NCBI GenBank assembly: GCA_030425545.1
Contig: JAUIAC010000001.1
Coordinates: forward strand, 3,132-67,131
Length of the DNA: 64,000 nucleotides
DNA from: a bacterium
GTDB taxonomy: Bacteria > Myxococcota_A > UBA9042
Direction of reading: 5' to 3'
Shown one piece after another: positions 4,385 to 63,125 of this stretch. Within the stretch, counting starts at the first letter, position 1, and every line of letters begins with the position of its first letter. Position numbers and translations under genes: made by a program. A model generated the notes under the pieces. It saw nothing but the letters and a program-made list of their open reading frames with translations, was not told where the DNA came from and did not search any database.

Positions 4385-4466
4385 GTCCGCTCCCGACCGC
4401 GACGTGGCGGCCGTGTTGTGAGGGCCAGGTTCAGAAGGTCGGCGGGACCGCGGTCCGGTTCGCCGC

Positions 4467-6383: not shown

Positions 6384-6542
6384 GGCGGCTCCTTAGGCGT
6401 GCGGGAGGAGCCGGGGTTCTAGCCCGCATCGGCGCGGATCGCCAGCGGCAGCGACACGACGCGGCGTGTGCCGATGCAAGGCCAACCCGCGCGCAGCGGC
6501 GATCGGAAGTCGGAGTCCGTGGGCGGCTCAGCCGCGCCGCGC

Positions 6543-20762: not shown

Positions 20763-20931
20763 CGGGTTCTCCAGCGCGAGTGAGGGGTGCCAAACGGTAC
20801 AACATCCTGGCGCGCCGCGAACGATCTGAAGCGCAGCGAGGCCCATTCCACCCGCCGAACAAACTCTCCCCACGACCCCGCCCGGTGGGTTAGGCTGCGG
20901 CGCAGCCCAGCTCGATCCAGGAGACACACGC

Positions 20932-25556: not shown

Positions 25557-25752
25557 GGCGAGCTCCTGGGTGCGCGGGTCGAGCGACGCTGTAGCACATC
25601 CACGGCGGGGGATGCGGTGGGTGGCGGAGAATCACGACCTCGCCGGCGCGCTTTCAGTTGGCGGACACACGCTGCTATGCTGCCGCGTCCCGACTCCCCC
25701 ACAACGCCGCGGCCCCCCTCCACCGAACCCGGCGAGAGCAACGCAGACCTAC

Positions 25753-28700: not shown

Positions 28701-29112
28701 CGCCGCGTACATCCGGGAGCACAGCAAGTCTGAGGAGACCGTCACCGGCTCCAGCACGCACGCCCCCATGGTGGCGCTGCTGGCCAAGCGACGCATGGCC
28801 GGCGACCACGTGGACACCAACTCGAAGACCTTCAAGACCGGCGTGGTGTCGCGCAAGGCGTTCTGGACCAAGGCGTGCAAGGACAACGTGCGCTTCATCG
28901 TCGCTGGGCCGCGCTCCTACTTCTCCCCCGCGTCCATGCCGCGCCGGCCGACGGTGGTGCGCCACTTCCGGCTGGTGAAGGAGTTCCGTGACCCTGCGCT
29001 GAAGCACTGGCGCTCGGTGACCTTGCAGCTGTGGGAGCGCAAGCACAGCCCCGACAAGCACCGCTGCACCTACGAGGGTCCGCAGCGCGGGGTGCGGGTG
29101 CGGCGCAAGTGA
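25753..29112 (+). CDS. GT-C fold glycosyltransferase, family 39/83-like (PMT/ArnT-like), with long Pro/Arg/Ala-rich N-terminal extension
   Basis: The first in-frame ATG after the upstream gene is at 25753. Polytopic membrane region with ...YSATDEGVYFYAAKAWASGLWPYHDFFFSHPPLH... (DE motif in the first extracytoplasmic loop, typical of GT39/GT83). The large C-terminal soluble domain is W-rich. The true start could be further downstream (the N-terminal 180 aa are low complexity). Confidence 0.55.
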   Translation: MARRPPRSSSPSGVHPPAVPGSAAPGGPAGGATAPAGSDDAVLEDRREQYRRASGSFRSRDFRKPQLAAGLDDPMADQDRRRSSAQRPAVLLDPTELYEASRSGVVTGGAASAGGAARAPTAAPPPRVVQGGSQPARRAGAQGPSGRGRAGAARDGADAPAAPSAEGAQHDGGAARRDASARGLRPAGPVPWAALALIAALALGATLLLPLVAEGPMLWKLLGEPTLAPWPLGGRITAGVVVLALVALVVSASQGALRAGLGESALPNAALMGSGLLAAGHLVFRAAAAPGGLNAPLAPLRGDLGGVPDAVWLGLAAGGLLAVTERQSQRMARTVALIGGLGLALAWWTPLGFAGQSFVPLLTALSGTAAPAEGALQLAAWVDAPGAVILGSFTPLLVLVPLLWPRALPPLVMRGLAAACVAVVPAVAALSSGDGTLVVAGGALATGATALLVAASVGLTLDRLTTRWDDEALMTLEILAVVLVVGVWTIAKINGMRYSATDEGVYFYAAKAWASGLWPYHDFFFSHPPLHILIPAVFFAIFGFSVTVAKSISVAAAGIAGLFIWRTGRRWFDPLTGVVAMTLFLFAGEVMKSSTNLTGINLTTMWACAGLWAALRRKSFLAGALLGAAACTGFYSVGYFLTLTVLALLAPDLDPDKNRPMVDRVLGQPGVQLLLGFAVVFGAVNLVFFLLAGEDYLTGVYRYHFLKRAKLAGFTPLDEGLHALPQNLALMLGGRDFRVSLYYHGAHYVLAFLAPLSLVATVAIRRHAQKATPHLFHAPKGLPPHLADKGRWAMLWDPRLWWTHPKSGGALALVTVLLWAMLTEFAQFKERYDFYYTLVLPLLSLLAAAWLHGLVRLGRWAAGCGARWRRPAEGPEARGLFQPAPKAAAPIFAAALALTLLWVPVNIWANATAWPSEVTPRGSSKGRGEVLKFDWIDAPGPSFVSETTRALLWKGHRVRGSLESGLHHYLWSKKRWFSTAEPIAAYIREHSKSEETVTGSSTHAPMVALLAKRRMAGDHVDTNSKTFKTGVVSRKAFWTKACKDNVRFIVAGPRSYFSPASMPRRPTVVRHFRLVKEFRDPALKHWRSVTLQLWERKHSPDKHRCTYEGPQRGVRVRRK

Positions 29113-29700: not shown

Positions 29701-31317
29701 CTACTCGCAGGTAGCGATGAACACCGGCTGCGTGCGGTCTTTCTTGCACTCGTCGCCGTCGCACTTCAGCGCGACGCCGTTGAGGGCCTCGAGCAGGGCG
29801 GCGTAGGGCAGGTTGGCGTCGACCGCGACCACGATGGACGTGCTCTGGTTGTCCGCCCACTTCTCCAGCCGATCGCCTTCCCCATGGGGCGCGGCGCTCT
29901 GCACGCTGCGCAAGGTGCCGTCGGACGAGAGCTTGCCCGTGTGGACCTGCTTGCCATCGTGATAGACGGCCGGCGTGAAGCCCTTGGCCTGCAGCGCGTC
30001 GCGGCCGACCACCGCGACGGCCTTGCAGGACTTGGTCTTGCCGCCGGGCGCCTTCAGCTTGAAGGGGATGCGCTTGTCCAGGGCCAGCAGCGTCACGGTG
30101 AAGCCCGAGCGACGGTTGCTGTGATCCGCGCGGCGGCGCCCCACGAGGATCACCGTCGGCCACTCCTTGGCGTGCTCCCCGACGATGGTCGCCTCGAGCA
30201 ACGACAGGCCATAGCTCACCGGCACGTCACCCTCAGGGACCAGCAGGATGTTGCTCTGGTTGAAGTTCGACACGGTCGACGCACGGGTGTCCTCCACCAG
30301 CTGGCTGATGCGCTTGGTCAGGGCCTCGTCGGTCTTGGTGAAGTCCGGCGTCCACGGGTTGGCGGCGTCGTTGAGCTTGCGCAGCGCGATGCCCATGAGC
30401 GAGATGCCCTTCTTGGTGACGAAGAGCGCCGCGTTGCCGTTGACCGGCGCGGCCACGGTCGAGCGAATCGGAGGCAGCTTGGGGAACTCCTCCCACTTGG
30501 GCACCGCCTTGATGCGGGCCTGATACCAGGCGATGAGCTGGTCGTTGAAGGCGTTGTAGCTGCTGCTCGGGTACTTCTTCTTGAAGGCCTCGATCATGTC
30601 GATGACCTTCTTGTAGTAGGGGATCATCACCTGCGTGGGCCGCAGCTCCATCGGGATGTCTTTGCAGTAGTCGTTCATCTTCGTGCGGCACATGACGTTG
30701 ATCTCCTCGCGGAAGAGCGAGGTCTTCGGCTCGTAGCCGAAGGCCAACTTCAAGTACGTGAAGAAGTAGGTCACGCGGTCGTCGTCCGCCCCGCGCCCCT
30801 CGCCGAAGAGGTCATGGCGGCGGGCCGACTCAGCCACATGAAAGAAGATCTTGTCGAAGGCCAGATCCTCCTCCCACTTGGTGTCCTTGCTCGCGGCGGC
30901 GGCGAGGCTCAGGTCGCGCCAGTAGTCCTTCGGCGGCATCTTGGCGTTGAAGTAGAACTTCTTCTGCCCCTCGAGCCAGGTGGCGAGGTCGTCGGCCGTG
31001 CCAGCGATCTTGGTGCCGCGTGCGATGACGCCGACCTTCTTGAACTCGGAGCGCGACACGGTGCCGGCCACCTTGCTCATCCACTCCAGGTAGGGGTGGC
31101 CACCGTCCGAGCCTGGCTTGCCGTCCTTGGGCGCGGTGCTGGTCAGGCGCTTGCGACGCTCGAGCATGATCTGCTCCAGCTTGGCCGTGCCCTTCTCCGC
31201 CCGGACCACCTTCTTCTTCTTCTTCGGGCCACAGGCGCTCAGGGGCAGCAGCGTCGCGACGAGCAACAGGGGCAGCAGGCGCGCGGCGCGTGCGACAGAC
31301 GGGTGGTTCTGGGTCAT
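29701..31317 (-). CDS. lipoprotein of unknown function (538 aa), possible ExbD/TolR-like C-terminal fold
   Basis: MTQNHPSVARAARLLPLLLVATLLPLSAC GPKKKKK: signal peptide plus lipobox. Lys-rich mature N-terminus. C-terminal segments ...IVVAVDANLPYAALLEALNGVAL... loosely resemble the ExbD periplasmic domain (weak). Confidence 0.55.
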   Translation of the reverse strand: MTQNHPSVARAARLLPLLLVATLLPLSACGPKKKKKVVRAEKGTAKLEQIMLERRKRLTSTAPKDGKPGSDGGHPYLEWMSKVAGTVSRSEFKKVGVIARGTKIAGTADDLATWLEGQKKFYFNAKMPPKDYWRDLSLAAAASKDTKWEEDLAFDKIFFHVAESARRHDLFGEGRGADDDRVTYFFTYLKLAFGYEPKTSLFREEINVMCRTKMNDYCKDIPMELRPTQVMIPYYKKVIDMIEAFKKKYPSSSYNAFNDQLIAWYQARIKAVPKWEEFPKLPPIRSTVAAPVNGNAALFVTKKGISLMGIALRKLNDAANPWTPDFTKTDEALTKRISQLVEDTRASTVSNFNQSNILLVPEGDVPVSYGLSLLEATIVGEHAKEWPTVILVGRRRADHSNRRSGFTVTLLALDKRIPFKLKAPGGKTKSCKAVAVVGRDALQAKGFTPAVYHDGKQVHTGKLSSDGTLRSVQSAAPHGEGDRLEKWADNQSTSIVVAVDANLPYAALLEALNGVALKCDGDECKKDRTQPVFIATCE

Positions 31318-31386: not shown

Positions 31387-32592
31387 TCAGGGCAGCCCAG
31401 GGGCCTTCGCGGGCTGCAGGCCGAGCGCCGCGCGCAGCACCGACAGGTTCTTGCGCGGCGGCGCGCACGAGGGGCACGCAGCTGCCGCACGCTCGAAGGC
31501 CTTGGCGGCCCCGTCGAGGTCACCGTCGCGCGCGGCGAGGATGCCGGCGCAGAAGCTGAGCGCCCAGCTCTCGGCGCCGAGCAGGGTCTGGGCCCCGCGG
31601 AGCACCGCGCGGGCGAGCTCCAGATCACCCGCGTCGAGCGCCGCCGCCGCCTGCACCTCGACCGCGAGCAGCTGCTTGGTGTCCCGGCGCAGCGCGCGCG
31701 ACGCCCGCGCGAACGCGCGTCGCGACTTGCCCTGCCGCCACTGCGCCCAGGCGCGCAACGCCAACGCGCGGGGATCGCTGCGGCGCAGCACCAGCCGCTC
31801 CACACGCGCGGGCTCGTCGAGGGCGAAGGCGACCTCGGCGCTGAGCGCGCGCACCGCAGCGCTGCCCTTGCCGCTCGCCATGGCCAGCATGTGCCTGGCC
31901 TTGCGGGCCTCGCCGAGCCCGAGGTACGTGCTCGCGAGCACCAGCGCGTAGCGCTCTGGCCCCCGCTGGCAGGACCGCGTCAGCGCGTCGGCCGCCGTCT
32001 TGGCCTCGGCAAAGTGCTTCGCCGCGGCGTGGGCCCGCAGCCGGAGCCCGAGCCACGCCAGCCGCGTCGGGCCGCACGCAGCCGCCCGGCGGACCTGTCT
32101 GCGCCGCGCCGCCGCCGACGCAGGGCCTGCCGCTCCGCCGATCTGGCCCGACTCGGCGGCCAGCTCCGCGCGCTTGCGGTCGGCCTTGGCCACGGCGACC
32201 TCGTTCACCGCCGAGAGGCGCTTGAGGGCGCCCGCGGAGTCCTCGCCGAAGAGCGCCCAGCCAGCGGCGAAGAGCTGCACTTCAACCGCCTCGGGGTGGT
32301 CCTTGAGCAGCTCCTTGAGGCGCGTGTCGACCGCCTTGCGCTGGTCGGGCTGCCGGGCCAACAGGCGGAGCCGGTCCAGCTCCGCGCCGAGCAGCCGGCC
32401 GTCCCGCGCGTAGGCCTTGGCGTAGAACTTCGCCGCGCCGCTGAGGTCCCCACGCGCCTCGCGCTGCCAGCCGCTGTGCCAGTGGCGCACCGCCTTCGAC
32501 GTGGTGCATCCCCCCAACGCGGCGGCGCACAAAAGCGCGACGACCGCCCCCCTGAGGAGGCGGCCGCCGCGACGTTGCTTAGGGCGCCCCAT
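31387..32592 (-). CDS. TPR-repeat lipoprotein, start 2 nt downstream of the atpC stop
   Basis: ...AVVALLCAAALGGC TTSK gives the lipobox. Ala/Leu/Arg-rich helical repeats of TPR-like periodicity. CxxC near the C-terminus (CPSCAPP). Confidence 0.55.
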   Translation of the reverse strand: MGRPKQRRGGRLLRGAVVALLCAAALGGCTTSKAVRHWHSGWQREARGDLSGAAKFYAKAYARDGRLLGAELDRLRLLARQPDQRKAVDTRLKELLKDHPEAVEVQLFAAGWALFGEDSAGALKRLSAVNEVAVAKADRKRAELAAESGQIGGAAGPASAAARRRQVRRAAACGPTRLAWLGLRLRAHAAAKHFAEAKTAADALTRSCQRGPERYALVLASTYLGLGEARKARHMLAMASGKGSAAVRALSAEVAFALDEPARVERLVLRRSDPRALALRAWAQWRQGKSRRAFARASRALRRDTKQLLAVEVQAAAALDAGDLELARAVLRGAQTLLGAESWALSFCAGILAARDGDLDGAAKAFERAAAACPSCAPPRKNLSVLRAALGLQPAKAPGLP

Positions 32593-32594
32593 GC

Positions 32595-33008
32595 TCAGCT
32601 GGCGCCTGCCACCGCGAGGCGGGCCTCGGCCAGGGCCACCACGTGGCGCTTGACCTTCCAGGCCTCGGAGCCCACGGCTTCCTTGCTCTCGTCGAGCGCC
32701 TTGCGCCCGGCGTCGAGGGCCTTGCGCGCCGCGTCCACGTCGATGTCAGCAGGCGTCTCCGCCAGCTCGGTGACGATGATGACCTGGGCACCCTGCTGGC
32801 TGACCTGCAGGTAGCCCTCGTCGAGCAAGAACACCGTCGGGTCGCTGTTGGTCGACGAGAGCACCGCGCACGGTCCCGTGCCCAGCGCGGTCATCATGTC
32901 CCGGTGGCCCGGCAGGATCCCGACCTCACCGGCGACCGTCGACGCGCGAATCGACGCCGCCTCGCCGCTGAACTTCTCCCCCTGGGGGGTCACGATCTCG
33001 ACCTGCAT
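32595..33008 (-). CDS. atpC: F0F1 ATP synthase subunit epsilon
   Basis: 137 aa. MQVEIVTPQGEKFSGEAASIRASTVAGEVGILPGHRDMMTAL... is a canonical epsilon N-terminal beta-sandwich. AAGGAG RBS upstream. Confidence 0.9.
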   Translation of the reverse strand: MQVEIVTPQGEKFSGEAASIRASTVAGEVGILPGHRDMMTALGTGPCAVLSSTNSDPTVFLLDEGYLQVSQQGAQVIIVTELAETPADIDVDAARKALDAGRKALDESKEAVGSEAWKVKRHVVALAEARLAVAGAS

Positions 33009-33088
33009 GGTCTGCTCCTTCGGGCGACATCAAGGGTTCGGCGAACCCGCGTGGCTTGGCCAGGCGCGGGCGACCGAAGCAGAGATGG

Positions 33089-35459
<2,371 letters not shown>

Positions 35460-35534
35460 TCATCGCTCCCGGGAGCGTGCCGGCCACCGAGGCGGCCAGC
35501 GTGGGTCAGAAGGGCGCTCGTCGCGCGTCGTGGC

Positions 35535-37103
35535 TCAGGCCTGGAACAGGTTCTTGAACTCGTTGAGCGCGCCCACCAGCTTCTGGCGGAGCGGATCGGA
35601 CTCCTTCTTCAGCGCCGACTTCTTCACGCCGACCTCGATCTCCGCGAGAAGCTCGGCCTTCTGGCTCTCGAGCCAGGCGAAGAGCTCGGTCTCGTAGCGG
35701 CCGAGCACCTCGGGGGTGAGGTGGTCGAGGAAGCCCTCTTTCGCCGTAGCGGCGAAGATCAGGATGACCTGACGCGACACGTGCAGCGGCGAGTACTGGC
35801 CCTGCTTCAGCAGGTCCACCAGCCGCGCGCCGCGCTGCAGCTGACGCTGCGTTGCCGGGTCGAGGTCCGAGGCGAACTGCGAGAAGGCCTCCAGCTCGCG
35901 GTAGGCAGCCAGCGACAGACGCAGCGGTCCGGCGACGCCCTTCATCGCCTTCACCTGCGCGGCGCCACCGACACGAGACACCGAGAGACCCACGTTGATG
36001 GCGGGGCGCACACCCTTGTTGAAGAGATCGCTCTCCAAGTAGATCTGGCCGTCGGTGATGGAGATGACGTTGGTGGGCACGTAGGCCGACACGTCGCCTT
36101 CCTGCGTCTCGATGATGGGCAGCGCGGTGAGCGAGCCGCCACCGAGATCGTCCGACAGCTTCGAGGCCCGCTCGAGCAGGCGGCTGTGGAGGTAGAAGAC
36201 GTCACCGGGGTAGGCCTCACGACCCGGAGGGCGGCGAAGCAGCAGCGACATCTGGCGGTAGGCGACGGCCTGCTTGGAGAGGTCGTCGTAGACGATGAGC
36301 GCGTGGCCGCCGTTGTCGCGGAAGTGCTCCGCCATGGCGCAGCCCGAGTAGGGCGCGATGAACTGCAGCGGCGCGAGCTCCGAGGCCGAGGCCGCGATGA
36401 CCGTGGTGTAGGCCATGGCGCCGTGCTGCTCGAGCTTGCCGACCACCTGGGCGACCGTGGACGCCTTCTGGCCGATGGCGACGTAGAAGCAGTAGACCGC
36501 GTCCTTGCCGTCGCCCTCGTGGGTGCTCTTCTGGTTGATGATGGTGTCGATGGCCACCGCGGTCTTGCCGGTCTGGCGGTCGCCGATGATGAGCTCGCGC
36601 TGGCCGCGGCCGATCGGGACCATGGAGTCGATGGACTTCAGGCCGGTCTGCAGCGGCTCGTGCACCGACTTTCGGGCGATGATGCCGGGGGCCTTCACCT
36701 CGACGCGGCGGTAGGAGATCTCGTCGCCGGCCTCAGGGGTCAGGGGCCCCTTGCCGTCGATGGGCTCACCGAGGGCGTTGACGACGCGGCCGAGCAGCGC
36801 GCGACCCGCGGGGACCTCGACGATCTTGCCGGAGCGCTTGACCAGGTGGCCTTCGCGGATGCTGTTGGCGTCGCCGAGCAGCGCCACACCGACGTTGTCC
36901 TGCTCGAGGTTGAGCACCATGCCCTTGACGTCGTTCGGGAACTCGAGGAGCTCGCCAGCGACGGCGTTCTCGAGGCCGTGGACGCGGGCGATGCCGTCGC
37001 CGACCGTCAGCACGCGGCCGGTCTCCTGCACGTCGAGCTTCGCGTCGTAGTTGGCGACCTGCTCGCGAATAATCCGGCTGACCTCAGCGACTCCGATGTC
37101 CAT
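35535..37103 (-). CDS. atpA: F0F1 ATP synthase subunit alpha
   Basis: The start at [15 protein letters not shown] (ATG 37103, AGGAG RBS) sits inside a longer ORF. Walker [10 protein letters not shown] and other alpha-subunit hallmarks are present. Confidence 0.95.
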
Positions 37104-37235
37104 GTCGACTCTCCTTGAGGACCTCGCTCTGGGCGAGGGGTGCGGGCTCGGCTTGCTCGGCAAGCGGCCCCGGGGTGCGTTGTGCGGGACAGGGCCCCGC
37201 GGCTCGCCTGGTATGAACCGGGCGAGCGAAGGGGT

Positions 37236-37787
37236 TCAGGCCACGTGGCTCGAGAGGAGCTGCTCCCGCAGCCGGTCGAGGTGGTTCTTGACCGACGCGT
37301 CGTACACGACGTTGCCGACCTTGATGACCAGCCCGCCCATGAGGGCGCTGTCTTGCGTCGCCTCGAGCTGCACGTCCTTGCCGAGCTGCTTGGCGAGCGC
37401 GGCCTGGATGCGGCCCTGGGCGGCGGCGTCGAGGGCCACCGCGCTGGTGACCTCAGCGGTGACGCGACCCGAGCGAGCGTCGAGCATCTCGCTGAACGTG
37501 GCGTGGATCTCGAGGGCGACGTCAAAGCGCCCCTTCTCGAGCAGCAGCCGCGCGAGGTTGTTGATGTTGCCGGTGATGCCGAGCTTGCCGAGCATGTCGT
37601 CGAGCAGCGTCGCGCGGGTGCCCATGGCGACCGTGGGGTTGCTGAGCATGTCGACCACGGTGGGCACGTCCCGCAGGACGGTGGCCAGCTTGTCGAAGTC
37701 GGCCCGCAGGGCCACCGCGCCGCCGGTCTCGTCGGCGAGCTCCAACATGGCCTGTGCGTAGCGCTTGCTGACAGGTGAGCGACTCAT
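37236..37787 (-). CDS. atpH: F0F1 ATP synthase subunit delta (OSCP)
   Basis: The start at MSRSPVSKRYAQAMLELA (ATG 37787) overlaps the atpF stop. This is the typical delta/OSCP N-terminus (RYAxAL). Confidence 0.8.
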   Translation of the reverse strand: MSRSPVSKRYAQAMLELADETGGAVALRADFDKLATVLRDVPTVVDMLSNPTVAMGTRATLLDDMLGKLGITGNINNLARLLLEKGRFDVALEIHATFSEMLDARSGRVTAEVTSAVALDAAAQGRIQAALAKQLGKDVQLEATQDSALMGGLVIKVGNVVYDASVKNHLDRLREQLLSSHVA

Positions 37788-38404
37788 GCCTGCACCTCCA
37801 CGGTGGCGGCGCCGGTCTCGAGCTCCGCGATGACGCGGTCGACCAGCCCCTGCTGACGCTGGGCGTCGAGCTTGGCCGCGATCTGGGTCGTGGCGAGGTT
37901 GAGCGCGACGTCCACGGCGTGGGCCGCCAGCTCCTCGCGCACCTTCTTGCCTTCCTGCGCGACGCGCGCGGCCTCTTCGGCGCTGATGCGGTCGGCGGTG
38001 GCCTTGGCCTCTTCGAGGATGCGCTTGCACTCGACCTCGGTCCCGACGCGGACCTCAGCGATGACCTCGGCGAGCTCCTCCTCGAGGCGCTCGAGGCGCG
38101 CCTTGTACTCGTCGTAGCGCGCCTGGGCGTCGGCGCGGAGGCGCGTGGCCTCCTCGATCTCCTCGACGACGGTCTTGTAGCGACCGTCGAGGGCCGCCGC
38201 GATGGGCTTGCGACCGAAGTAGATGAGGATGCCGAGGAAGACGGCGAAGTCGATCAGGTAGTAGCCGTGGATGGTGAAGGTGAAGCCCCCCCCACTCGCC
38301 AGCGCGACGCTCGGCACCAGCGAGGCGCCGACCGTCATGACGCCCACGCGCGCGAGGCGCGAGGCGTCGCGTCGAAGGTTCTGAAACAGTGAAGACATGC
38401 GCAT
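37784..38404 (-). CDS. atpF: F0F1 ATP synthase subunit b
   Basis: Single N-terminal TM segment (...HGYYLIDFAVFLGILIYFG...) followed by a long charged coiled-coil. Position between b' and delta. Confidence 0.8.
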   Translation of the reverse strand: MRMSSLFQNLRRDASRLARVGVMTVGASLVPSVALASGGGFTFTIHGYYLIDFAVFLGILIYFGRKPIAAALDGRYKTVVEEIEEATRLRADAQARYDEYKARLERLEEELAEVIAEVRVGTEVECKRILEEAKATADRISAEEAARVAQEGKKVREELAAHAVDVALNLATTQIAAKLDAQRQQGLVDRVIAELETGAATVEVQA

Positions 38405-38895
38405 CAGCCCTGGCCCTCCACGATCTTGTCGGTGATGAGCGCGGCGATCTGCTCGGCCTCCGCCTCGATGGCCGTGCGCGCCTTGTCCGCCTCGACCCGG
38501 AGGGCCGAGATGCCGGCGTCGATGCGCGCGTTGGTCTCCGTGCGCACCTGCGAGACGAGGGTCGAGGCCTCCTTCTGCGCGGCGTTGCGGGCGGTGGCAC
38601 GCTCGGCGAGGGCGCGCTGCTTCTCCTGCGACATGGCCTTCTCATACACGGCGACCTGCTCGTCGGCCTCCTTGAGCATGCGCTTGGCCTCGGCGCGAGC
38701 GCCCTCTGTGCGGGCGTCACGCTGCTCAAAGCGAGCGAGCAGGGGCTCGAACACGAGCTTGGGCAGCACCAGGATGAGGGCGAGGAAGAACGCGAACTGG
38801 ACGATGGCCGTCGCGTCCACGTCAACCAGCCCAGCGGCGGCGACGGGGAGCTCCCAGGCGCGGTCCTGCAGGGCGGTGGAAAGCGTAGCGAACAT
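38404..38895 (-). CDS. F0F1 ATP synthase subunit b' (second b-type subunit)
   Basis: 163 aa with one TM segment (...IVQFAFFLALILVLPKLVFEPL...) plus a charged coiled-coil. Its stop overlaps the atpF start. Confidence 0.75.
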   Translation of the reverse strand: MFATLSTALQDRAWELPVAAAGLVDVDATAIVQFAFFLALILVLPKLVFEPLLARFEQRDARTEGARAEAKRMLKEADEQVAVYEKAMSQEKQRALAERATARNAAQKEASTLVSQVRTETNARIDAGISALRVEADKARTAIEAEAEQIAALITDKIVEGQG

Positions 38896-39127
38896 GAGCA
38901 GCTGGCCTCCGTAGTGCGGGGCCTGTCGCAGAAGCGCGCAGGCGGCTCGCAGGCACCGTTTGGGGTGGACCCCCGGTGCGGCGCGCGCGGCTTACCACTT
39001 CGAGCCCAGCCGGTCAACGCGCGGCGCCCCTCGGAGCGCGCCCTGCGGAGCCGACGCTCAGGGCGGATTGACGCTCCCATGGGGGTTCGCCACACTTCCG
39101 GCTCCCAACGTCGCTAGGAGTCCCGTC

Positions 39128-39865
39128 ATGGCCCGTTTTCCCCGCATCTTGTCTTGTGTTGTCGCAGTCTTCGCCCTCGCCCTCGTGGGGTGCGGATCCA
39201 GCGAAGGCCAGGGGGGTAGCGGCGCTGGGATCAGCTGTGGCGTGGGCGAGACGGTGGCGCTCGACAGCCAGGGCAACAAGTTCTGCCAGAAGGCCGGCGC
39301 AGACGGCACGATCTCGGGCACCGACACGGGCGGCACCGGCGGCGCAGACACCGGAGGCACCGGCGGCGCAGACACCGGAGGCACCGGCGGCGGCACGGAC
39401 GGCGGAGCGGGCAGCGACGGCGGCGCCAAGGACGCGGGGCCGAGCGACCCCTGGTGGACCTGCCCGCCGGTCAAGGGCACGGGCCTCGACCACGGCAAGA
39501 AGTGCACGAAGCACGAGGAGTGCCTGTACGGCTACTGCATGAAGGGCGGGCACCTGACGGGCTACGACGACTCGATCTCCTACTGCACCAAGAACAACGG
39601 CTGCACCGGCGGCGACGCCGCGACCTGCGCTTACGACGACAACAGCCCCTCGGGCGTGACTTACAAGTCTGCGTTTGAGAAGAGCAAGTCGGGCGGCAAC
39701 ACGAAGCGCACCTCGGACCAGCCGGTCAAGGTGTGCGCCCGCGCGTGCAAGTCCGACAGCGAGTGCAAGCAGTGGAACGCGGACCTGCCGGACTGCATCA
39801 AGAACTCGACCAAGTACGTGTCGATCGGCACGCAGGGCGTGTGCGGCAAGAACCCGCTCAAGTAG
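39128..39865 (+). CDS. small secreted Cys-rich lipoprotein with (GTDTGGTGGAD)n linker
   Basis: ATG 39128 with AGGAG RBS. MARFPRILSCVVAVFALALVGC GSSEG gives the lipobox. Gly/Thr/Asp repeat linker, then an approximately 150 aa module with about 14 Cys. Confidence 0.6.
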   Translation: MARFPRILSCVVAVFALALVGCGSSEGQGGSGAGISCGVGETVALDSQGNKFCQKAGADGTISGTDTGGTGGADTGGTGGADTGGTGGGTDGGAGSDGGAKDAGPSDPWWTCPPVKGTGLDHGKKCTKHEECLYGYCMKGGHLTGYDDSISYCTKNNGCTGGDAATCAYDDNSPSGVTYKSAFEKSKSGGNTKRTSDQPVKVCARACKSDSECKQWNADLPDCIKNSTKYVSIGTQGVCGKNPLK

Positions 39866-39999
39866 GCCTCGAGTCGGCGCAGCGCGGCCCCTCGGGCGGC
39901 CCCTCGCACGACACCTCGCACGACACCTCGCACGACCGTCAGCTCCGCCGACAAGCCCGACCCGCGCCCGGCAATGGGGCGCCTCGGGTCGGCTGCGCC

Positions 40000-40419
40000 C
40001 TACCCTTCCGCGGTAAACCCGAGGAGCCGATCGACGGTCGCCTGGTCTGCAGGCGGGAAGTCGAAGTGGGTGAGCTGAGCTGGCGGCACCCAGCGGTAGT
40101 CGTTGACGTAGCGACACTCGGGCTGACCCTCGGTGATCGTGCACGCCCAAGCCACCAGACGCAGCCGGTACTGGTCGTAGACCCGCTCGACGGCCAGCCG
40201 CGGCTCGTCGCACGAGATGCGCACGCCGAGGGTCGCCAGCAGGCAGCGGTTCAGCGCGTCTTGCTCGCTCTCGCCGCTGCGCACGCGGCCTCCGGGGAAC
40301 TCCCACAGCAGGGGCATCACGGCGTGGGCGTTGCGCTGCGCGATGAGGTAGCGGCCGTGGCTGTCCACGATCTCGGCCGCGACCACGGTCACGAGCGGAA
40401 GGTCCTGCGGTGACGACAT
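40000..40419 (-). CDS. NUDIX hydrolase (MutT-like) with degenerate Nudix box
   Basis: 139 aa. ...WEFPGGRVRSGESEQDALNRCLLATLGV... matches the Nudix box GX5EX7REUXEEXGU only partially (RE->RC, EE->AT). Confidence 0.6.
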   Translation of the reverse strand: MSSPQDLPLVTVVAAEIVDSHGRYLIAQRNAHAVMPLLWEFPGGRVRSGESEQDALNRCLLATLGVRISCDEPRLAVERVYDQYRLRLVAWACTITEGQPECRYVNDYRWVPPAQLTHFDFPPADQATVDRLLGFTAEG

Positions 40420-40504
40420 GCCCTACTCCAAGCCGACGGAGGCGCGGGGGCGAAGGCCGGCGCCTTGGGCCGCTCGCGCCCCGCTCGGGCGCCGAGGCGA
40501 TTCG

Positions 40505-40601
40505 TGGCGGAAGTGCAGGGGAATCGAACCCCCCTGAGACGCTCGTCACGCCTCACACCGGTTTTGAAGACCGGGGAACTCACCAGAGCCCAAGCACCTC
40601 C
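40505..40601 (-). tRNA. selC: tRNA-Sec (selenocysteine, anticodon UCA)
   Basis: Reverse complement of 40505-40601. 8-bp acceptor stem GGAGGUGC/GCACUUCC, 6-bp D-stem, anticodon loop CU-UCA-AA, long variable arm (about 22 nt), T-arm GGGGG-UUCGAUU-CCCCU, discriminator G and encoded CCA. The 8/5 acceptor/T architecture and UCA anticodon are diagnostic of bacterial tRNA-Sec. Total 97 nt. Confidence 0.85.
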
Positions 40602-40724
40602 AGGGACCGCGAGCTTGCCTGCGGTGGGGAAGGGGAAGCAACCGAAAGCGACACGTGGGCGCGATCCAGGGCACCAACGCGCCTCAGGGCGGCGCTCTGG
40701 AGCGGTCGGGCTTGCCCCGCTGGA

Positions 40725-41519
40725 CTACTCCGGAGCGTCGCCACGGAAGCGCGCCGTCATCAGCGCGACGCAGATGCAGGTCACCATCACGGAAGCGCCG
40801 GCGTTGAGCCACACGTCCAGGGCGTCGGCGCTGAACAGGGCGACGTCGGTGTCGGCGCCCATGACCACCCCAGCGGTGGGCCCGGGAGAGAGCAGGCCGA
40901 TGCGCGAGGACAGACCCCCGAGGCCGAGATCGACCAGCACCAGCCAAGCGAGCCCGAGCGCTGCCGCCGGTCGCGCCACGGCGGCCAGGAGCATGAAGAG
41001 CGCCGTGTAACCGGCCGCCGCGAGGACGATGGCCACGAGCAAAAAGGGCAGGTGACCCCAGGGGATCGGCAGCGCGAAGCCCAGCGCCGCGAGCTGAACG
41101 GCAGCCACCAGGGCGACGCCATAGGCGGCGACCACGCAGCTCGTGGCGACGAAGCGTCCGAGCGGCAAAGCGGTGGCGGCGCGCGGGCGGAGCAGGAAGG
41201 CCGAGAGCGCGCCGTGGTCGGCGTCGGCGCGGAGCGCGCGGGTGCCGAAGCCGAGGGCGATGAGGCCGATGGCGCGCACCCCCAACGAGCCGACGAAGGC
41301 CAAGAGCGCGCGCGGCTCCCCAGCGGAGGCCCGGGCGACGCCGACCGCTGCGGCGGCGACGAGGGCCACCAGCAACAGCCCAGGCCAGAGCTGCTTGAGG
41401 CGCAGCGTGCGCCGCAGGTGGAGCTCAGCGTGCAACCACAGCGCGGCGCCGACGCTGGGCGGATCGGGGAGCGCCTGGGGCGGCATCGGGTCTGCGCGGT
41501 GGTTGGGCAGGACGCTCAT
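40725..41519 (-). CDS. ABC-2 type transporter permease (6 predicted TM segments)
   Basis: 264 aa hydrophobic protein. Its start overlaps the stop of the upstream ATPase gene (ATGA). Confidence 0.5.
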   Translation of the reverse strand: MSVLPNHRADPMPPQALPDPPSVGAALWLHAELHLRRTLRLKQLWPGLLLVALVAAAAVGVARASAGEPRALLAFVGSLGVRAIGLIALGFGTRALRADADHGALSAFLLRPRAATALPLGRFVATSCVVAAYGVALVAAVQLAALGFALPIPWGHLPFLLVAIVLAAAGYTALFMLLAAVARPAAALGLAWLVLVDLGLGGLSSRIGLLSPGPTAGVVMGADTDVALFSADALDVWLNAGASVMVTCICVALMTARFRGDAPE

Positions 41520-42442
41520 CGCATCTCCTCCCCAAGCGCGGCGAAGAGGCTGACCAGGTCGTCCCCCTCGGTCTCGATCTCGGTCACGCGCGCCCCCGAC
41601 GCGAGGATGGCGGGCGGCAGCGCCGCGTAGATCCCACCCAAGCCGTCGGCCTGGGCGATGAGCGCGCCGGGCTCAAAGCGCAGCACGCGCACGCCCGCGC
41701 GCTCCAGCAGCGCCCGCGCCAGCCCGTTGGGATCCGACGTGTGCAGCCGAACGGCGGTGCCGCGGGTCTGCAGCAAGGCACGAATCTCGGCCTGGCTGCC
41801 AGCGGCCACGACGCGCCCGCGGTAGAGCAGCACCAGCCGCTCCGAGACCGCCTCCACCTCTTCGAGGATGTGGCTGCTCATGACCACACACGCGCCGCGG
41901 TCCGCCGCCTCGCGCATCAGCCCCGCGATCTCGAGCCGCCACACCGGGTCGAGCGCGTTGAGCGGCTCGTCGAGCAAGACCAGGTCCGCGGGCAACGCGA
42001 GCGCCTGCGCCAGCTTCACCCGCTGACGCTGCCCGCGAGACAGGGTCGCGATGGGCGCGTCGACCTTCTCCGCCAGTCCGAGCCGACGCAGCACCACGTC
42101 GGCGCGACCCTCGGCGTCATCGAGGCCGAGCCCCGCGCACCGAAGCAACATGGCGAGGAACTGCGCCGGCGTGTCCTCGACCGGCAGCTGGTCGCCGTCC
42201 GACGACATGGCGATGCGATTGGCGAGGTCCGGGTGGCGTCGCTCGAGCCCTCCTTTCCACCGGACCGAGCCGCTGGTCGGCCGAATCAACCCGGCCGCGA
42301 GACGCAGAAAGGTGGTCTTGCCAGCGCCGTTGGGGCCGAGCAGCCCGACGAGGCCCGGCTGGAGCCGCAGCGTCACGTCGAGCAGCGCCACCCTGGCGCC
42401 AAAGCGGCGCGTGCAGCGCTCGAGCTGGAGGACGTCGTTCAT
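41516..42442 (-). CDS. ABC transporter ATP-binding protein
   Basis: The start at MNDVLQLERCTRRFG (ATG 42442) sits inside a longer ORF. Walker A GPNGAGKTT, signature LSRGQRQRV, Walker B LVLLDEP. Confidence 0.85.
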   Translation of the reverse strand: MNDVLQLERCTRRFGARVALLDVTLRLQPGLVGLLGPNGAGKTTFLRLAAGLIRPTSGSVRWKGGLERRHPDLANRIAMSSDGDQLPVEDTPAQFLAMLLRCAGLGLDDAEGRADVVLRRLGLAEKVDAPIATLSRGQRQRVKLAQALALPADLVLLDEPLNALDPVWRLEIAGLMREAADRGACVVMSSHILEEVEAVSERLVLLYRGRVVAAGSQAEIRALLQTRGTAVRLHTSDPNGLARALLERAGVRVLRFEPGALIAQADGLGGIYAALPPAILASGARVTEIETEGDDLVSLFAALGEEMR

Positions 42443-43359
42443 GAGCGCCCCCTGCCCAGCGGTGGGTCCTTCATGAAGCGGTCGAGCAGCAGCCAGCTCA
42501 CCAGCGCCAGGAGCGCCCAGAGCCCGAGGCCGGCCGCCGCGTCGAGCAAGACAAAGTCGGGCGTCGAGGCGGTGTCGACCCAACGCGTCAGCAGCGTCCA
42601 CGCCGCGCTGAGGCCGTGGTGCAGGTCCACAGACCGGGCGTAGCTGTTGCGCCCCCAGATCAGCTGCCCCACCCAGCTCATGCCCACGCTGCCCAGCACC
42701 AGCACGCCGTAGTACAGCGGCACCCGCCCGGGGCTCCTCGCCAGCACGCTGCCCGCGAGCCCGACCACCGTGCTCAGCAGCGCCGCGACCAGAGACGCCA
42801 CGGTCACGGCGGCGAAGACCACCGGCCAGAAGAGCCAGGACGCCGCGAGCGGCCCTGCGCCGCCCGGCTGGAGGCCCAGGCCGACCAGGAGCACCAGCGC
42901 CAAGCCGAGCAGCGGCAGGCCGACGCCGGCGGAGGCCAGGAGCGTGCCCGCGATGACGCGGCCAAAGAGGTAGTGGCGCCTGCGCACGGGACGCGAGAAG
43001 TAGAGCAGGAGGGCGCCGAAGCGCAGATCACGCGCCAGGGTCGGCGCGACGAGCCCAGCCTGCAGCAGCAGCGCCCACGCCGCGTTGATGCCGAAGACGA
43101 GGCCCAGGGTCTGCAAGGCAAAGGCGGCCTCCTCTGCGGCCGGAACGGCGAAGGCGGTGATCTGAAAGCGCGCCACGGCGTAGACCGTCACCCCAAGCGC
43201 CGGTAGGGCGAAGGCCAACCACAAGAGCGTGCGCAGCAGCCCGCGACGCAGGTCGCGCGCGAACACGGAGACCAGCCCGCCCAGGCGCTGCGCCTCGGAC
43301 ACGGTCCCGCCGTGCCACGCCGAGAACCCCGCCGGTCGGACGAAGGGCGACTCGCTCAT
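42439..43359 (-). CDS. ABC-2 type transporter permease
   Basis: The start at MSESPFVRPAGF (ATG 43359) sits inside a longer ORF. Multi-TM protein. ATGA overlap with the upstream ATPase gene. Confidence 0.5.
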   Translation of the reverse strand: MSESPFVRPAGFSAWHGGTVSEAQRLGGLVSVFARDLRRGLLRTLLWLAFALPALGVTVYAVARFQITAFAVPAAEEAAFALQTLGLVFGINAAWALLLQAGLVAPTLARDLRFGALLLYFSRPVRRRHYLFGRVIAGTLLASAGVGLPLLGLALVLLVGLGLQPGGAGPLAASWLFWPVVFAAVTVASLVAALLSTVVGLAGSVLARSPGRVPLYYGVLVLGSVGMSWVGQLIWGRNSYARSVDLHHGLSAAWTLLTRWVDTASTPDFVLLDAAAGLGLWALLALVSWLLLDRFMKDPPLGRGRS

Positions 43360-44346
43360 GCCCCCCCCGCCTTGCGTGTAGGATCGTCCAGGCGCAGGTG
43401 ACGGACAAAGGCCTCGGCCATGCCTTCCTGCTCCAAGCGAAAGTTGCGGATGCCCGCGCCGGCGTCGGCCGCGGCCCGCCACAGGGGTGTGGGGTCGCCT
43501 TCCGTCAGCTGGATGCGGATTCGGTCGCCGTCAATGTCGACGGGCACCTGCGCCGCCCGCAGCGCCGCCGCCACAGCAGCCACGTCGCCCACCAGGTCCA
43601 CAACATGGTGGGCGCCGGTCGCCGCGGGTGGCACACCCGGCACGCCGCTGGGCCGGACCGCACGATGGCCGGACCCGGCGCGAAAGCGCGACATGGGGCC
43701 GACGAAGCCGGTCTGCCCCCGCGAGAGCAGCACGACGTGGTCGCACACCTCCTCGACATCGCCCAGCACATGGGTGGAGAGCAGCACGGAGGTGCCCGCG
43801 CGTCCGACCTCGGCGATGAGCGCGAGCATCTCGGCGCGTCCCGGGGGGTCGAGGCCAGCGGTGGGCTCGTCGAGGAAGACCAGCCGCGGCCCGTGCGCGA
43901 GGGCCATGGCGAGGCGCAGCCGCTGTCGCATGCCCAGGGAGAAGCCAGACGCGGCCCGGTAGCGGGCCTCGCTCAAGCCCACCAGATCCAGCATCTCGTG
44001 CGCCCGCGCGAACGCGTCGGTGTGGTTGAGCCCGCACAGCCGGGCCGCGTGCACGACCTGCTCGATGCCGTTGAGCCCGGGAAAGAGGCTGTCGTCCTCT
44101 GGCATGAAGCCGATCTCGGCGCGGGCCTCCATGGCCGACTCGGGCATGGGCCACCCGAGCACCTCGACGGTCCCCGTGTCGGCGTTGTCGAGCCCGAGCA
44201 GGAGGCGGAAGAGCGTCGACTTGCCGGCACCGTTGGGTCCGAGGAGGCCGACGACGCCCGCTGGGATGGCGACGGTGATGCCCCGAAGCGCGGTCGACTC
44301 GGCGAAGGCCTTGTGCACGCCGTCGAGCACCGCCACCGGCGGCGCA
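43356..44346 (-). CDS. ABC transporter ATP-binding protein (probable GTG start)
   Basis: Walker A GPNGAGKST, signature FSLGMRQRL, Walker B LVFLDEP. A GTG at 44346 is preceded by GAGGG. The 1183 aa ORF in the track is an upstream over-extension. Confidence 0.75.
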
Positions 44347-49692: not shown

Positions 49693-51141
49693 CTACCGAC
49701 CGCGACGGCGACCACGACGGCCCCTGCGGCGCTTCTTCTTCGGCGGCGGGGCGGCGGCCTTCTTCAGCAGGTCGGCGTACTTGTCTTCCAACGCCTGGGA
49801 CGCGAAACGGGTCGAGAGCGCGAGGCTGTAGCGCTCCTTGCAGAGCTTGGTGTCCCCAGCCTTGCAGGCGGTGTCGCCGTCGAGCTCCAACACCCCCGCG
49901 ATGGCCTTCAACGCGGCGTCGGCGTCCGCCCGATAGACGGACTCCTTGGGGATCAGCTGGTGCTGTCGAATCGCCTCGCCGTAGGTCTTGGCGGCGAAGG
50001 CGGCCTCGGCTTTGACGAAGCGCGCGCCCGCCTTCTTCTCCGCCGTGATCCGGTTGAGGGCCTTCGTCGGCTTGCTCTCGGTGGGATCGAGTCGACGCGC
50101 CTCTTTGTAGGCTCGCTCCGCCTTGTCCCACTGCCGACCGTTCATGGCCTCGCGCCCCTTCTCCAGCAGCTCGTCGTACTCCTTGAGGCGCTTGGCGCGC
50201 TTGGCCTCGAGCGCCGCGGCCTTGGCCTTCATGTCTGCCGCGCCCTCGCCCTCGTCGCGCTGGGCCTCGCTGGCCGAGATGGCAGGCGAGATCCACCTGT
50301 CGTAGGCGAAGCCGACGATGACGACGAGCCCCGTGATCGCCAGCACAATGACAGCCACGGCGGCGACCTGGGGCAGCATCGAGGAGCGCTCGGGTGGCTG
50401 TTGCTGCTCGTAGTAGTCGGGAAAGGCGTCCCCATAGGAGCTGATGGGCGCGGCCGGCCGGAACCCGGAGGCGCTCGCCGCATGCGGCGACGGTGCGGGC
50501 TCCTGCCACGGCTCAGGCACGGGCGCCTCGGTCTCTCCCTCCACCTGAAAGACAAAGCCCACCGTGCCAAAGCGCACCCGGTCGCCGTGGCGCAGGTCCT
50601 GCACGTCGATGCGGCGCTCGTTGACGTAGGTGCCGTTGGAGCTCCGCAGGTCCTCGACCACCACGCGGCCGTCGTCGTCCTGGGTGATCTTGGTGTGGAT
50701 ACGCGACACGGAGGGGTCGTTGATGACCAGCGTACAGTCTTTGCCGCGGCCGATCAGCGTCGTCGCCCGGTTCAGCTCGAAGGCCTCCGCGCCCCCGTGG
50801 ACGGGCACCAGGTGGGCGTAGGTGCTCGATCCCATCGGCCGCGCAAAGGCAGCGCCCTCGATGTGCAGGTAGAAGTCGCCGATGCGCACCTGTGCGCTGC
50901 GCGGCAGCTCGGTGACGTTGTAGATCCGCTTGCCGTTGAGCCAGATGCCATTGGCGGCGTTGAGATCCTCGATGTAGCAGCGCCCCTCGACGGTGAAGAG
51001 GCGGGCGTGCCGGCGAGAGACGTTGTCCGCCGCGAGGACGATGTCGCAGGACTGGCTGCGGCCGATGACGAACTCACCATCTTCAAACGAGTACTCGTCG
51101 ACGATCGCGCCGTACTTGTCCTCGATGATGAGCGTGAACAT
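49693..51141 (-). CDS. membrane-anchored protein with two N-terminal FHA domains and a C-terminal TPR-like domain
   Basis: Start MFTLIIEDKYG (ATG 51141). FHA 1 ...FVIGRSQSCDIVLAADNVSRRHARL...EDLNAANGIWLNG.... FHA 2 ...TLIGRGKDCTLVINDPSVSRIHTKI...DLRSSNGTYVNERRI.... One TM segment (AAVAVIVLAITGLVVIVGFAY). C-terminal helical domain and polybasic tail KKKRRRGRRGRRRGR. Confidence 0.75.
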   Translation of the reverse strand: MFTLIIEDKYGAIVDEYSFEDGEFVIGRSQSCDIVLAADNVSRRHARLFTVEGRCYIEDLNAANGIWLNGKRIYNVTELPRSAQVRIGDFYLHIEGAAFARPMGSSTYAHLVPVHGGAEAFELNRATTLIGRGKDCTLVINDPSVSRIHTKITQDDDGRVVVEDLRSSNGTYVNERRIDVQDLRHGDRVRFGTVGFVFQVEGETEAPVPEPWQEPAPSPHAASASGFRPAAPISSYGDAFPDYYEQQQPPERSSMLPQVAAVAVIVLAITGLVVIVGFAYDRWISPAISASEAQRDEGEGAADMKAKAAALEAKRAKRLKEYDELLEKGREAMNGRQWDKAERAYKEARRLDPTESKPTKALNRITAEKKAGARFVKAEAAFAAKTYGEAIRQHQLIPKESVYRADADAALKAIAGVLELDGDTACKAGDTKLCKERYSLALSTRFASQALEDKYADLLKKAAAPPPKKKRRRGRRGRRRGR

Positions 51142-51148
51142 GGGCTTC

Positions 51149-53218
51149 CTAGGCCTTGAGGTCGACCGCACGTAGGTCAGCGCCCTCGAGCGTCACCTCC
51201 ACGATGCGATCCAGGACTGCGCCGCCGTCCACGATGGAGAAGACACCGAGCACGTCGAGGGCCGCGACGGTGCGGGAGGCCGCGACCGCCATGGGCACAC
51301 CAGCGTAGCGGACCGCGTGCGCGTTGAGCGCGCGCTGCATGGCCTCCTCAGCGCTGCGGGCGTGGAGGAAGCCGAGCCAGGGCGCGATGCCGTCGCAGGC
51401 GTGGTCGATGAGACCGATGAGCTGCGCCGCGCCGCACTCCCCCAAGAGGATCCGGTCCGGCCGCAGCATGCGGGCCACGTGCAGCGCCTCGTCGCCCACC
51501 GCCGTGTCGAGGCGGATCACCTGCGGCTGCGACAGGTGCAGCCGCACACCTTGCTCCGTGACGACGATGCGCTCGGTGTCGGGGACCTCGCGCGCCAGCG
51601 CGTTGAGCACGGTGCGGCGGCCCGACCCCGCGGCGCCGACCAGCGCGATGCTCCGGCCCGCGAGCATGAGGTCTCGGAGCTGACCCGCGGCGTCCTCTGT
51701 GACCACGCCACGCCCCACCAGGTCGTCGAGCGAGGGCGCGTCACCCCGGGGCTTTCGAATCAACACCACCGGGCCGTTGGGGCACAGCGGGGGCCACGCC
51801 ACCCGCACCGTGGTGCCGTCCGCCAGGGTTCCGTCGACCCAGTGTCCAGCGCTGTCCGGCGCGCCGCTGGCTCGCACCAGGCGCTCCGCCGCCGACGAGA
51901 GCGCGGCCTGCCCGCTGAACCGGACCTCCGTCTCCTGGCGCTCGCTGTCCCGGTGGACCCAGATCTGCTCAGGGCCGTTGACCTCGATGGTCTCGACCGC
52001 GGCGTCGTCGAGCAGCGTCTCGAGCGGGCCGAGCCCGACCAGCTCGTAGATCAGATCGCGCTTGAGCCGGTCGAGGTCGAGCGTGTCCGGCAGGGAGGCG
52101 TGCTGACCGTCGACAAAGGCCACGACGCGCGCCTCCATCTCTGCCCACTCGGAGTCGCTCAGCTGTGCAGCGTCCCCGGTGAACGACCCGGCCAGCTCTT
52201 CACTGGCCTGCGTGTGGAGCAGGGCGAGCGCGTCGTAGTGCCCGCTAGGAGGGACAAAGGCGTCGCCCTCGGCGGTGCTCATCACCGGCATCGGGGCGGC
52301 GACGTCTGGCATGGACAGGTCGAGAGACAGATCCGGCGCCTGAACGCCCGAGACCGCGGCAGCGGCGGCGTCGAGGGCCGCGCCGAGCCCGTCGACCGGT
52401 CCAGTCATGCGATCGTCCACCGCCTCCATGGCCGCGACAGGGTCTGCCGCGACGACCGCCGCGTCGCCCACCATCGGAGCGGCCGCCTCACGGCGGGCCG
52501 CGATCTCGGCCATGGCGTCGCTCGCGGCGTCACCGAGCTGCGACAGGGTCGACTCGTCGAGCGCGTCCAAGGCCTCAAGCGGGGCGTCGGCCTCGCCGTC
52601 CAGGCCTGGACCGCCCTGGTCGGCCACAGGGGCGGCGAAGGGGTCGTCCGCACCGAAGGCGCCGCTGGCGAGGGCGTCGTCTGCGCTAGCGGCGTCGAAG
52701 GCCTCCGCGGCGAAGGCGTCGTCTCCAAAGGCGTCGTCGCCGAACGCGTCGGCGGAGAATTCGTCGGCGCCGAAGCCCGACGCGTCGAAGTCCGCGCCAC
52801 CGTCGGCCGACTGCGCCGGCTGGCTTGACGAGGAGACCGCGCGGCCACTCTCAGACGTCGCTGCGTCGAGGCCCAGGTCGTCGCCCAGCGGCGCCGCGTC
52901 GTCTGCTGCAGTGCCGTCGTTGGGCTGACCCAGGTCGAAGAACTGCATCACAAAGTCGCCCAGATAGGCCTTGTCTTCCGACCCCACCTCGACCGGCGTC
53001 GTGATGCGATGCCCGTTGACGTAGGTGCCGTTGGTGCTGCCGAGATCTTCGACCACGAACCGGGGGCCGTGCACGCGCACCAGGGCGTGACGCTTCGAGA
53101 TGTTCTGCTTGGGCAAGATGACGTCGTTGCCCTTGACCCGACCGATCATGATCTCGGGCTTGTCGAAGTGGAAGGTGTACACCTGCCCACTCTTCTCACG
53201 GATGGTGACGCTGAACAT
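51149..53218 (-). CDS. FHA domain protein fused to a CpaF/TadA (VirB11-like) secretion-ATPase fold with degenerate catalytic motifs
   Basis: N-terminal FHA (...IMIGRVKGNDVILPKQNISKRHALV...DLGSTNGTYVNGHRI...). Long acidic linker (about 200 aa, D/A/E-rich). C-terminal approximately 330 aa aligns by eye to CpaF. The Walker A position reads GAAGSGRRT instead of GSGKTT. The Walker B/Glu position reads IVVTEQGVRL instead of IEDAAEL. The conserved RMRPDRIIVGE block is retained (MLRPDRILLGE). Confidence 0.7.
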   Translation of the reverse strand: MFSVTIREKSGQVYTFHFDKPEIMIGRVKGNDVILPKQNISKRHALVRVHGPRFVVEDLGSTNGTYVNGHRITTPVEVGSEDKAYLGDFVMQFFDLGQPNDGTAADDAAPLGDDLGLDAATSESGRAVSSSSQPAQSADGGADFDASGFGADEFSADAFGDDAFGDDAFAAEAFDAASADDALASGAFGADDPFAAPVADQGGPGLDGEADAPLEALDALDESTLSQLGDAASDAMAEIAARREAAAPMVGDAAVVAADPVAAMEAVDDRMTGPVDGLGAALDAAAAAVSGVQAPDLSLDLSMPDVAAPMPVMSTAEGDAFVPPSGHYDALALLHTQASEELAGSFTGDAAQLSDSEWAEMEARVVAFVDGQHASLPDTLDLDRLKRDLIYELVGLGPLETLLDDAAVETIEVNGPEQIWVHRDSERQETEVRFSGQAALSSAAERLVRASGAPDSAGHWVDGTLADGTTVRVAWPPLCPNGPVVLIRKPRGDAPSLDDLVGRGVVTEDAAGQLRDLMLAGRSIALVGAAGSGRRTVLNALAREVPDTERIVVTEQGVRLHLSQPQVIRLDTAVGDEALHVARMLRPDRILLGECGAAQLIGLIDHACDGIAPWLGFLHARSAEEAMQRALNAHAVRYAGVPMAVAASRTVAALDVLGVFSIVDGGAVLDRIVEVTLEGADLRAVDLKA

Positions 53219-53274
53219 CCAACCTCCGGAGCCGCAGGACGGATCGCCGGACTAGAGCTGTCATCGACAGCGCG

Positions 53275-62941: not shown

Positions 62942-63014
62942 GCCCAGATAGCTCAGTCGGTAGAGCAGGGGATTGAAAATCCCCGTGTCGGCGGTTCGAT
63001 TCCGTCTCTGGGCA
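62942..63014 (+). tRNA. tRNA-Phe (anticodon GAA)
   Basis: GCCCAGA acceptor pairs with TCTGGGC. D-arm GCTCAGTCGGTAGAGC. Anticodon stem GGGGA/TCCCC with loop TT-GAA-AA. T-loop GGTTCGATTCC. Discriminator A. 73 nt, CCA not fully encoded. Confidence 0.9.
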
Positions 63015-63049
63015 CCTCCCAGCCTCGCGCTGGGTGGTTCGACATCAAA

Positions 63050-63125
<76 letters not shown>

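Follow-up and report, generated by a model that had tools for sequence, protein, structure and literature searches.

What does the 97-nt segment at positions 40505-40601 of this 64-kb stretch of DNA (referred to in full as the window) encode, is its product in use in the host cell, and does it mark a place at which mobile DNA has been inserted? The evidence given below leads us to conclude with high confidence that in this segment an uncultured member of the Myxococcota carries a functional bacterial selC gene of canonical type, which encodes tRNA-Sec with the anticodon UCA, that the gene probably has its own promoter, and that it is not an occupied integration site. The identification draws on gene finding by ARAGORN, on the Rfam family RF01852, on a thermodynamic fold, on pair counts over orthologous tRNAs and on likeness to the selC gene of Escherichia coli K-12.

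Identity and anatomy of the tRNA gene

One of the three tRNA genes that ARAGORN finds in the window is a tRNA-SeC with the anticodon tca, located at 40505-40601 on the minus strand. A first-pass annotation of this DNA had claimed a tRNA-Sec gene (selC, anticodon UCA) with no strand assigned and had proposed ARAGORN as one means of checking it; the program returns both the claimed isotype and the same boundaries. A covariance-model scan with all of Rfam agrees, with RF01852 (tRNA-Sec) matching at 40601-40509 over its full length (model positions 1-91 of 91) at 76.9 bits and E = 4.8e-14. The gathering score of this family is 47, so that the selC match stands 30 bits above it, and with such a score and E-value the match is far beyond chance. 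Four further bases of the gene, at 40508-40505 on the minus strand, fall outside the Rfam match and read GCCA, and both the G discriminator and the CCA end of the tRNA are thus templated.

The structure was derived from the thermodynamic (minimum free energy, MFE) fold together with pair counting over five orthologous tRNAs, and is numbered here from the 5′ end (position 1 = window 40601). Both approaches give an acceptor stem (1-8/86-93) of 8 bp, one of them a G.U pair, and, after a linker of 2 nt, a D stem (11-16/21-26) of 6 bp that is capped by the 4-nt loop UGGU. The anticodon stem (28-32/40-44) has 5 bp, with C27.U45 unpaired, and presents the UCA anticodon (35-37) in a 7-nt loop (33-39, CU-UCA-AA). 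The long variable arm (47-54/60-67) consists of 8 bp and a 5-nt loop, and a single base separates it from the T stem (69-73/81-85), which has 5 bp and the loop UUCGAUU. Directly 3′ of the acceptor stem is the discriminator base G94 (equivalent to G73; window 40508), followed by the templated CCA at window 40507-40505. The MFE structure places the T arm one register off, and it is the five-sequence pair count that backs the canonical register.

The acceptor branch accordingly comprises 13 bp, 8 in the acceptor stem and 5 in the T stem, which is the bacterial form. A 13-bp acceptor branch, arranged as either 8/5 or 9/4, is what defines a tRNA-Sec (PMC5389517); the consensus line of RF01852 is drawn as 9/4, while the window sequence itself pairs as 8/5. 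The 8-bp acceptor stem, 5-bp T stem, long variable arm, UCA anticodon and G discriminator, all of which had been read by eye from the letters in the first-pass annotation, are borne out by folding and by the pair counts over the five orthologues.

Orthologous loci and selection on the tRNA

The NUDIX protein encoded next to the tRNA was scanned against 185,579 species-representative genomes. Eight loci were recovered, all of them in metagenome-assembled genomes (MAGs) of uncultured Myxococcales or Myxococcota, with a top identity of 74%, and the window thus derives from an uncultured myxobacterial lineage that this collection does not include. Four of these (L002, L003, L004 and L005, with NUDIX identities to the window of 74, 71, 60 and 49%, respectively) each carry a tRNA-Sec gene just upstream of the NUDIX gene and on the same strand, as detected by ARAGORN and scored by Rfam at 76-80 bits. 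The other four (L006-L009), with NUDIX identities of 38-42%, have neither a tRNA-Sec nearby nor atp or OmpA neighbours; they were rejected as orthologous loci, and being different loci they have no bearing on the loss of selC.

The tRNA-Sec genes of the four related MAGs, JAGSHB01, CALENB01, PBTG01 and CALGHC01, are 91-99% identical to that of the window, with 1 to 9 of the 97 positions differing among the five tRNAs, and the UCA anticodon is invariant (5/5). The intergenic flanks of the five loci, unlike the tRNA, are essentially unalignable. When the 8/5 structure is applied to all five sequences, every pair cell holds a standard pair (160/160, or 32 pairs in each of five tRNAs). Three pairs have undergone compensatory double changes, namely 6:88 (UA to CG) in the acceptor stem, 47:67 (UA to CG) in the variable arm and 72:82 (GC to AU) in the T stem; all three occur in a single sequence, that of L005, and so represent few independent events. 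At four further pairs only one side has changed, exchanging G-C or A-U for G-U or the reverse, and pairing is kept. When, as a control, the 3′ partners are shifted by 1 to 3 columns, pairing falls to 41-59% and all of the double changes disappear. Because stem pairing is kept and the tRNA remains 91-99% identical despite unalignable flanks, tRNA-Sec is, as judged from sequence comparison, under strong purifying selection, and selection of this strength argues that the tRNA is in use in its host.

The only change private to the window copy is at position 9 (window 40593), in the linker that joins the acceptor stem to the D stem, where a U replaces the G that is found in all four related MAGs and in E. 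coli.

Gene neighbourhood, expression and the question of an island

Real genes in the neighbourhood were picked by their third-position GC content, the window having about 70% GC, and were then named with Pfam and NCBIfam. A spacer of 85 nt (40420-40504, minus strand) separates the 3′ end of the tRNA from the start codon of a gene for a MutT-like NUDIX hydrolase of 139 aa (40000-40419, minus strand; PF14815, 5.5e-19; PF00293, 1.2e-09), which NCBIfam MutT/Nudix models also match, with scores under their equivalog cut-offs. The NUDIX gene is followed by a small conserved ORF with no family match (39661-39999, minus strand) and then by an F1Fo ATP synthase cluster, whose families identify the subunits b, delta, alpha, gamma, beta and epsilon (32595-38991, minus strand). 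After the atp cluster come two conserved genes of unassigned function (31390-32592 and 29704-31317, minus strand). Another small conserved ORF without a family match occupies 39061-39531, and no a or c subunit of ATP synthase is recognisable by Pfam or NCBIfam among the ORFs tested at 38991-40000. An exact look-up of the NUDIX protein gave no record, and the only record of a protein identical to the AtpG of the window is a 2-kb Logan contig of run ERR3428545. The sample behind that run therefore contains this organism or a very near relative.

Directly 5′ of selC lies a four-gene cluster for an ABC-2-type transporter (40725-44339, minus strand; PF00005, PF12679). It is composed of an ATPase gene (43359-44339), a gene for a 347-aa protein of unassigned family (42442-43482), a further ATPase gene (41519-42601) and an ABC-2 permease gene (40728-41519), all on the minus strand, and NCBIfam recognises a DrrA-like ATPase among its products. 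Pfam therefore upholds the earlier placement of the tRNA between a NUDIX gene and an ABC operon, identifying a MutT-like NUDIX on one side and an ABC-2 permease and ATPase on the other, all on the minus strand. Beyond the ABC cluster, an OmpA-family gene, a gene for a coiled-coil protein and the gene for MnmG are encoded on the plus strand.

According to tblastn of the neighbouring proteins, the gene order of the window is also that of L002 and L003, which have the ABC cluster at 3211-6876 and 5995-9717, respectively. The cluster is missing from the two more distant genomes: in L004 (3541-4151) and L005 no ABC cluster lies between OmpA and tRNA-Sec, these two being immediate neighbours there. 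On the 3′ side all five genomes agree, with NUDIX within about 100 nt of tRNA-Sec and the atp operon thereafter. In this clade of uncultured Myxococcales, selC is inherited vertically at a fixed chromosomal spot, between a divergent OmpA cluster on one side and, on the other, the series that runs from selC through NUDIX to the atp operon.

A patchy segment beside this particular gene nonetheless raises the question of whether mobile DNA occupies, or once occupied, an integration site at selC, with the ABC operon as cargo left from a genomic island that has since degraded. In enterobacteria, selC is known as a hotspot for such islands, and the ABC cluster, present in the window and two of its relatives and absent from the other two, is distributed as such cargo might be. 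Integrases that target tRNA genes, however, insert at the 3′ end of the tRNA, whereas the variable segment here lies on the 5′ side and the 3′ neighbour is kept in 5/5 genomes. No integrase or recombinase was detected by Pfam and NCBIfam among the flanking ORFs, which cover about 10 kb on each side. Likewise, probes of 19 and 30 nt from the 3′ end of the tRNA, with up to three mismatches allowed, match nothing in the 64 kb other than tRNA-Sec, the ABC cluster is not framed by any meaningful repeats, whether direct or inverted, and the GC content of the cluster (0.72-0.73) equals that of its surroundings, without a shift at the edges. The first-pass annotation had argued against an island from the lack of an adjacent integrase, and its argument gains from the flanks free of recombinase genes, the lack of a 3′-end duplicate and the constant 3′ neighbour. 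With att-like repeats, bracketing repeats and an integrase all absent, an island at selC was rejected, and we consider this origin of the locus highly improbable.

The likely promoter site of selC is the intergenic region upstream of it (40602-40727, minus strand). In this region, TTGCTT (40641-40636) resembles a -35 element, and CAAGCT (40617-40612), which ends 10 nt short of the 5′ end of the tRNA, weakly resembles a -10 element. In the four related MAGs, a TTGAC(G/C) box recurs some 35-45 nt upstream of tRNA-Sec, at about columns 175-185 of the five-locus alignment, where the rest of the flank is unalignable; the site of the window that aligns with it is TTGCTT. On the strength of this alignment, the box may be the -35 element of a tRNA-Sec promoter, and selC is predicted to have its own promoter within the upstream spacer of approximately 125 nt. 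A scan of 39900-41000 found no consensus sigma-70 promoter and, with the tRNA-NUDIX spacer included, 0 intrinsic terminator sites; the spacer folds no better than shuffled sequence (z = -0.08).

A different reading of the same arrangement would make selC, NUDIX, the small ORF and the atp genes a single transcription unit, or would tie the clade-specific ABC-2 exporter, inserted just 5′ of selC, to selenium handling. The head-to-tail order of the genes in five genomes and the lack of a detected terminator after the tRNA would support a single unit, and if it existed, the supply of tRNA-Sec would be coupled to the expression of a MutT-like hydrolase and of ATP synthase. The whole 20-kb region is syntenic, however, and simple inheritance of gene order therefore explains the succession of selC, NUDIX and atp. 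We accordingly regard either version of this reading as very improbable and retain that of a vertically inherited selC which is probably transcribed from its own promoter.

Several other features of the window were observed in passing. One giant ORF, encoding about 2,255 aa (14217-20981, minus strand), contains at least seven Dicty_CTDC (Dictyostelium-type Cys-rich) repeats. It is adjoined by a gene (20830-22746, plus strand) whose product matches the two domains that make up copper type II ascorbate-dependent monooxygenases of the PHM/DBH type, enzymes that are best known from animals. A START-domain protein, which has a lipid-binding fold, is encoded at 24714-25631 (minus strand; weak Pfam match, 1.8e-06), and the stop-to-stop frame of a PMT_2-type glycosyltransferase-like ORF of 1,251 aa (25357-29109, plus strand) extends over part of its gene. 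Two adjacent genes at 49696-53251 (minus strand) encode FHA-domain proteins, one of which has two such domains, while the second is a fusion with a T2SSE-type secretion ATPase; this arrangement is kept in L005. Further along, genes for tRNA-Phe(GAA) (62942-63016, plus strand; Rfam tRNA, 70.9 bits) and tRNA-Ala(CGC) (63050-63125, plus strand; Rfam tRNA, 63.8 bits) lie 34 nt apart.

Selenocysteine decoding and comparison with known systems

If the tRNA functions by the established pathway, it would be charged with serine by SerRS, which would recognise it via the long variable arm and G73. SelA would then make Sec-tRNA-Sec, with selenophosphate supplied by SelD, and SelB, reading the 13-bp 8/5 branch, would deliver Sec-tRNA-Sec to a UGA codon followed by a SECIS hairpin. 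Among those ORFs of the 64-kb window that were scanned with Pfam and NCBIfam, the Pfam scan having covered part of all ORFs in the window, none encodes SelA, SelB, SelD or formate dehydrogenase. The window was also scanned for genes with an in-frame TGA, a coding-type GC3 signal being required on both sides of the codon. At the two stringencies used, 4 candidates and 1 candidate came up, each of which was a gene end or an antisense frame. The search for split ORFs with in-frame TGA codons that the first-pass annotation had suggested therefore turned up no credible case when run on the window. One TGA, at 31387-31389 (minus strand), lies between the same-frame ORFs 31390-32592 and 29704-31317 and was rejected as a recoding site, the L002 orthologues of these ORFs being in different frames.

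A window with neither Sec machinery nor a selenoprotein gene among the ORFs scanned is what would be seen around a relic, that is, an orphan selC whose tRNA is idle or decaying after the loss of selA, selB and selD, and bacteria commonly lose the Sec trait (PMC1794560). A decaying gene would not, however, be expected to remain 91-99% identical across five genomes in which the NUDIX identity is 49-74% and the flanks cannot be aligned, nor to keep its pair at each stem substitution, a pattern expected only under continuing selection. In addition, the surveyed cultured Myxococcales that have the Sec trait all have selenoproteins (PMC5029168). The pattern of conservation thus makes a relic unlikely, and with the other evidence taken into account we give this explanation a very small probability. 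The remaining alternative is a look-alike, either an allo-tRNA or a tRNA-Cys(UCA) of the selC* type, that would read UGA as Cys or Ser. These tRNAs share with the tRNA of the window the long variable arm, the long D stem with its tetraloop, an extended acceptor stem and in some cases the UCA anticodon, they are found in the former Deltaproteobacteria, and they turn up as false positives in searches for tRNA-Sec (Mukai et al., 2017, NAR; PMC5389517). What separates them is the acceptor branch, which in those classes has 12 bp (8/4 or 9/3), together with U73 in selC* (PMC5389517). The window tRNA, in contrast, has a 13-bp 8/5 branch, with its pairs supported in five sequences, and a G discriminator (G73), so that it is not a member of the allo-tRNA/selC* group; the downstream gene, moreover, encodes a NUDIX protein and not selB* or cysS*. 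An allo-tRNA or selC* identity was rejected on branch length and discriminator base, and we hold it to be extremely unlikely.

The first-pass annotation had inferred that selA, selB, selD and at least one UGA-recoded selenoprotein gene exist elsewhere in the genome, and this gains indirect support from the strong purifying selection on the tRNA and from published surveys in which cultured Myxococcales appear as Sec-decoding. In a survey of >5,200 genomes by Peng et al. (PMC5029168), the selenoprotein counts listed (supplement 3) are 10-12 for Anaeromyxobacter, 6 for Plesiocystis pacifica, 3 each for Haliangium ochraceum and Corallococcus coralloides, 2-3 for Myxococcus species, and 1 each for Stigmatella aurantiaca and Cystobacter fuscus. 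For Anaeromyxobacter dehalogenans, 11 selenoproteins including FdhA and SelD have been reported (Zhang et al., PMC1794560, Table 3). The Sec trait is thus well documented at the level of the lineage, in cultured Myxococcales. The selC gene flags the uncultured, marine or environmental Myxococcota lineage from which the window derives as very probably Sec-decoding. For this reason, gene callers should be prepared for UGA-interrupted genes in the rest of the genome, for example fdhA, selD and genes for peroxiredoxin-like and thioredoxin-like proteins, and should not truncate them. The value of this selC lies mainly in such annotation; given its textbook 8/5 form and a Sec trait that is already known in cultured Myxococcales, it adds nothing new to selenocysteine biology.

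The experimentally characterised selC of E. coli K-12 (b3658, RefSeq) has, helix for helix, the same architecture as the tRNA-Sec of the window. Both have an 8-bp acceptor stem, a 2-nt linker, a 6-bp D stem with a 4-nt loop, UCA in a 7-nt anticodon loop, an 8-bp variable arm, a 5-bp T stem with a 7-nt loop, a G discriminator and an encoded CCA. The likeness extends to individual pairs, since in both tRNAs the acceptor stem is closed by C-G and the T stem begins with G.U. The two nevertheless differ in several details. The window tRNA is 97 nt long rather than 95 because its variable-arm loop has 5 nt and not 4, its anticodon stem has 5 pairs and the C27.U45 mismatch where that of E. coli can form a sixth pair, and position 9 is U in the window and G in E. 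coli. The sequences of the stems are largely different, and so is the genomic context, which consists of the NUDIX gene and the atp operon in the window and of yicJ and setC in E. coli. Despite these differences in sequence and setting, the selC of the window is an already-known kind of gene, in the textbook bacterial 8/5 form.
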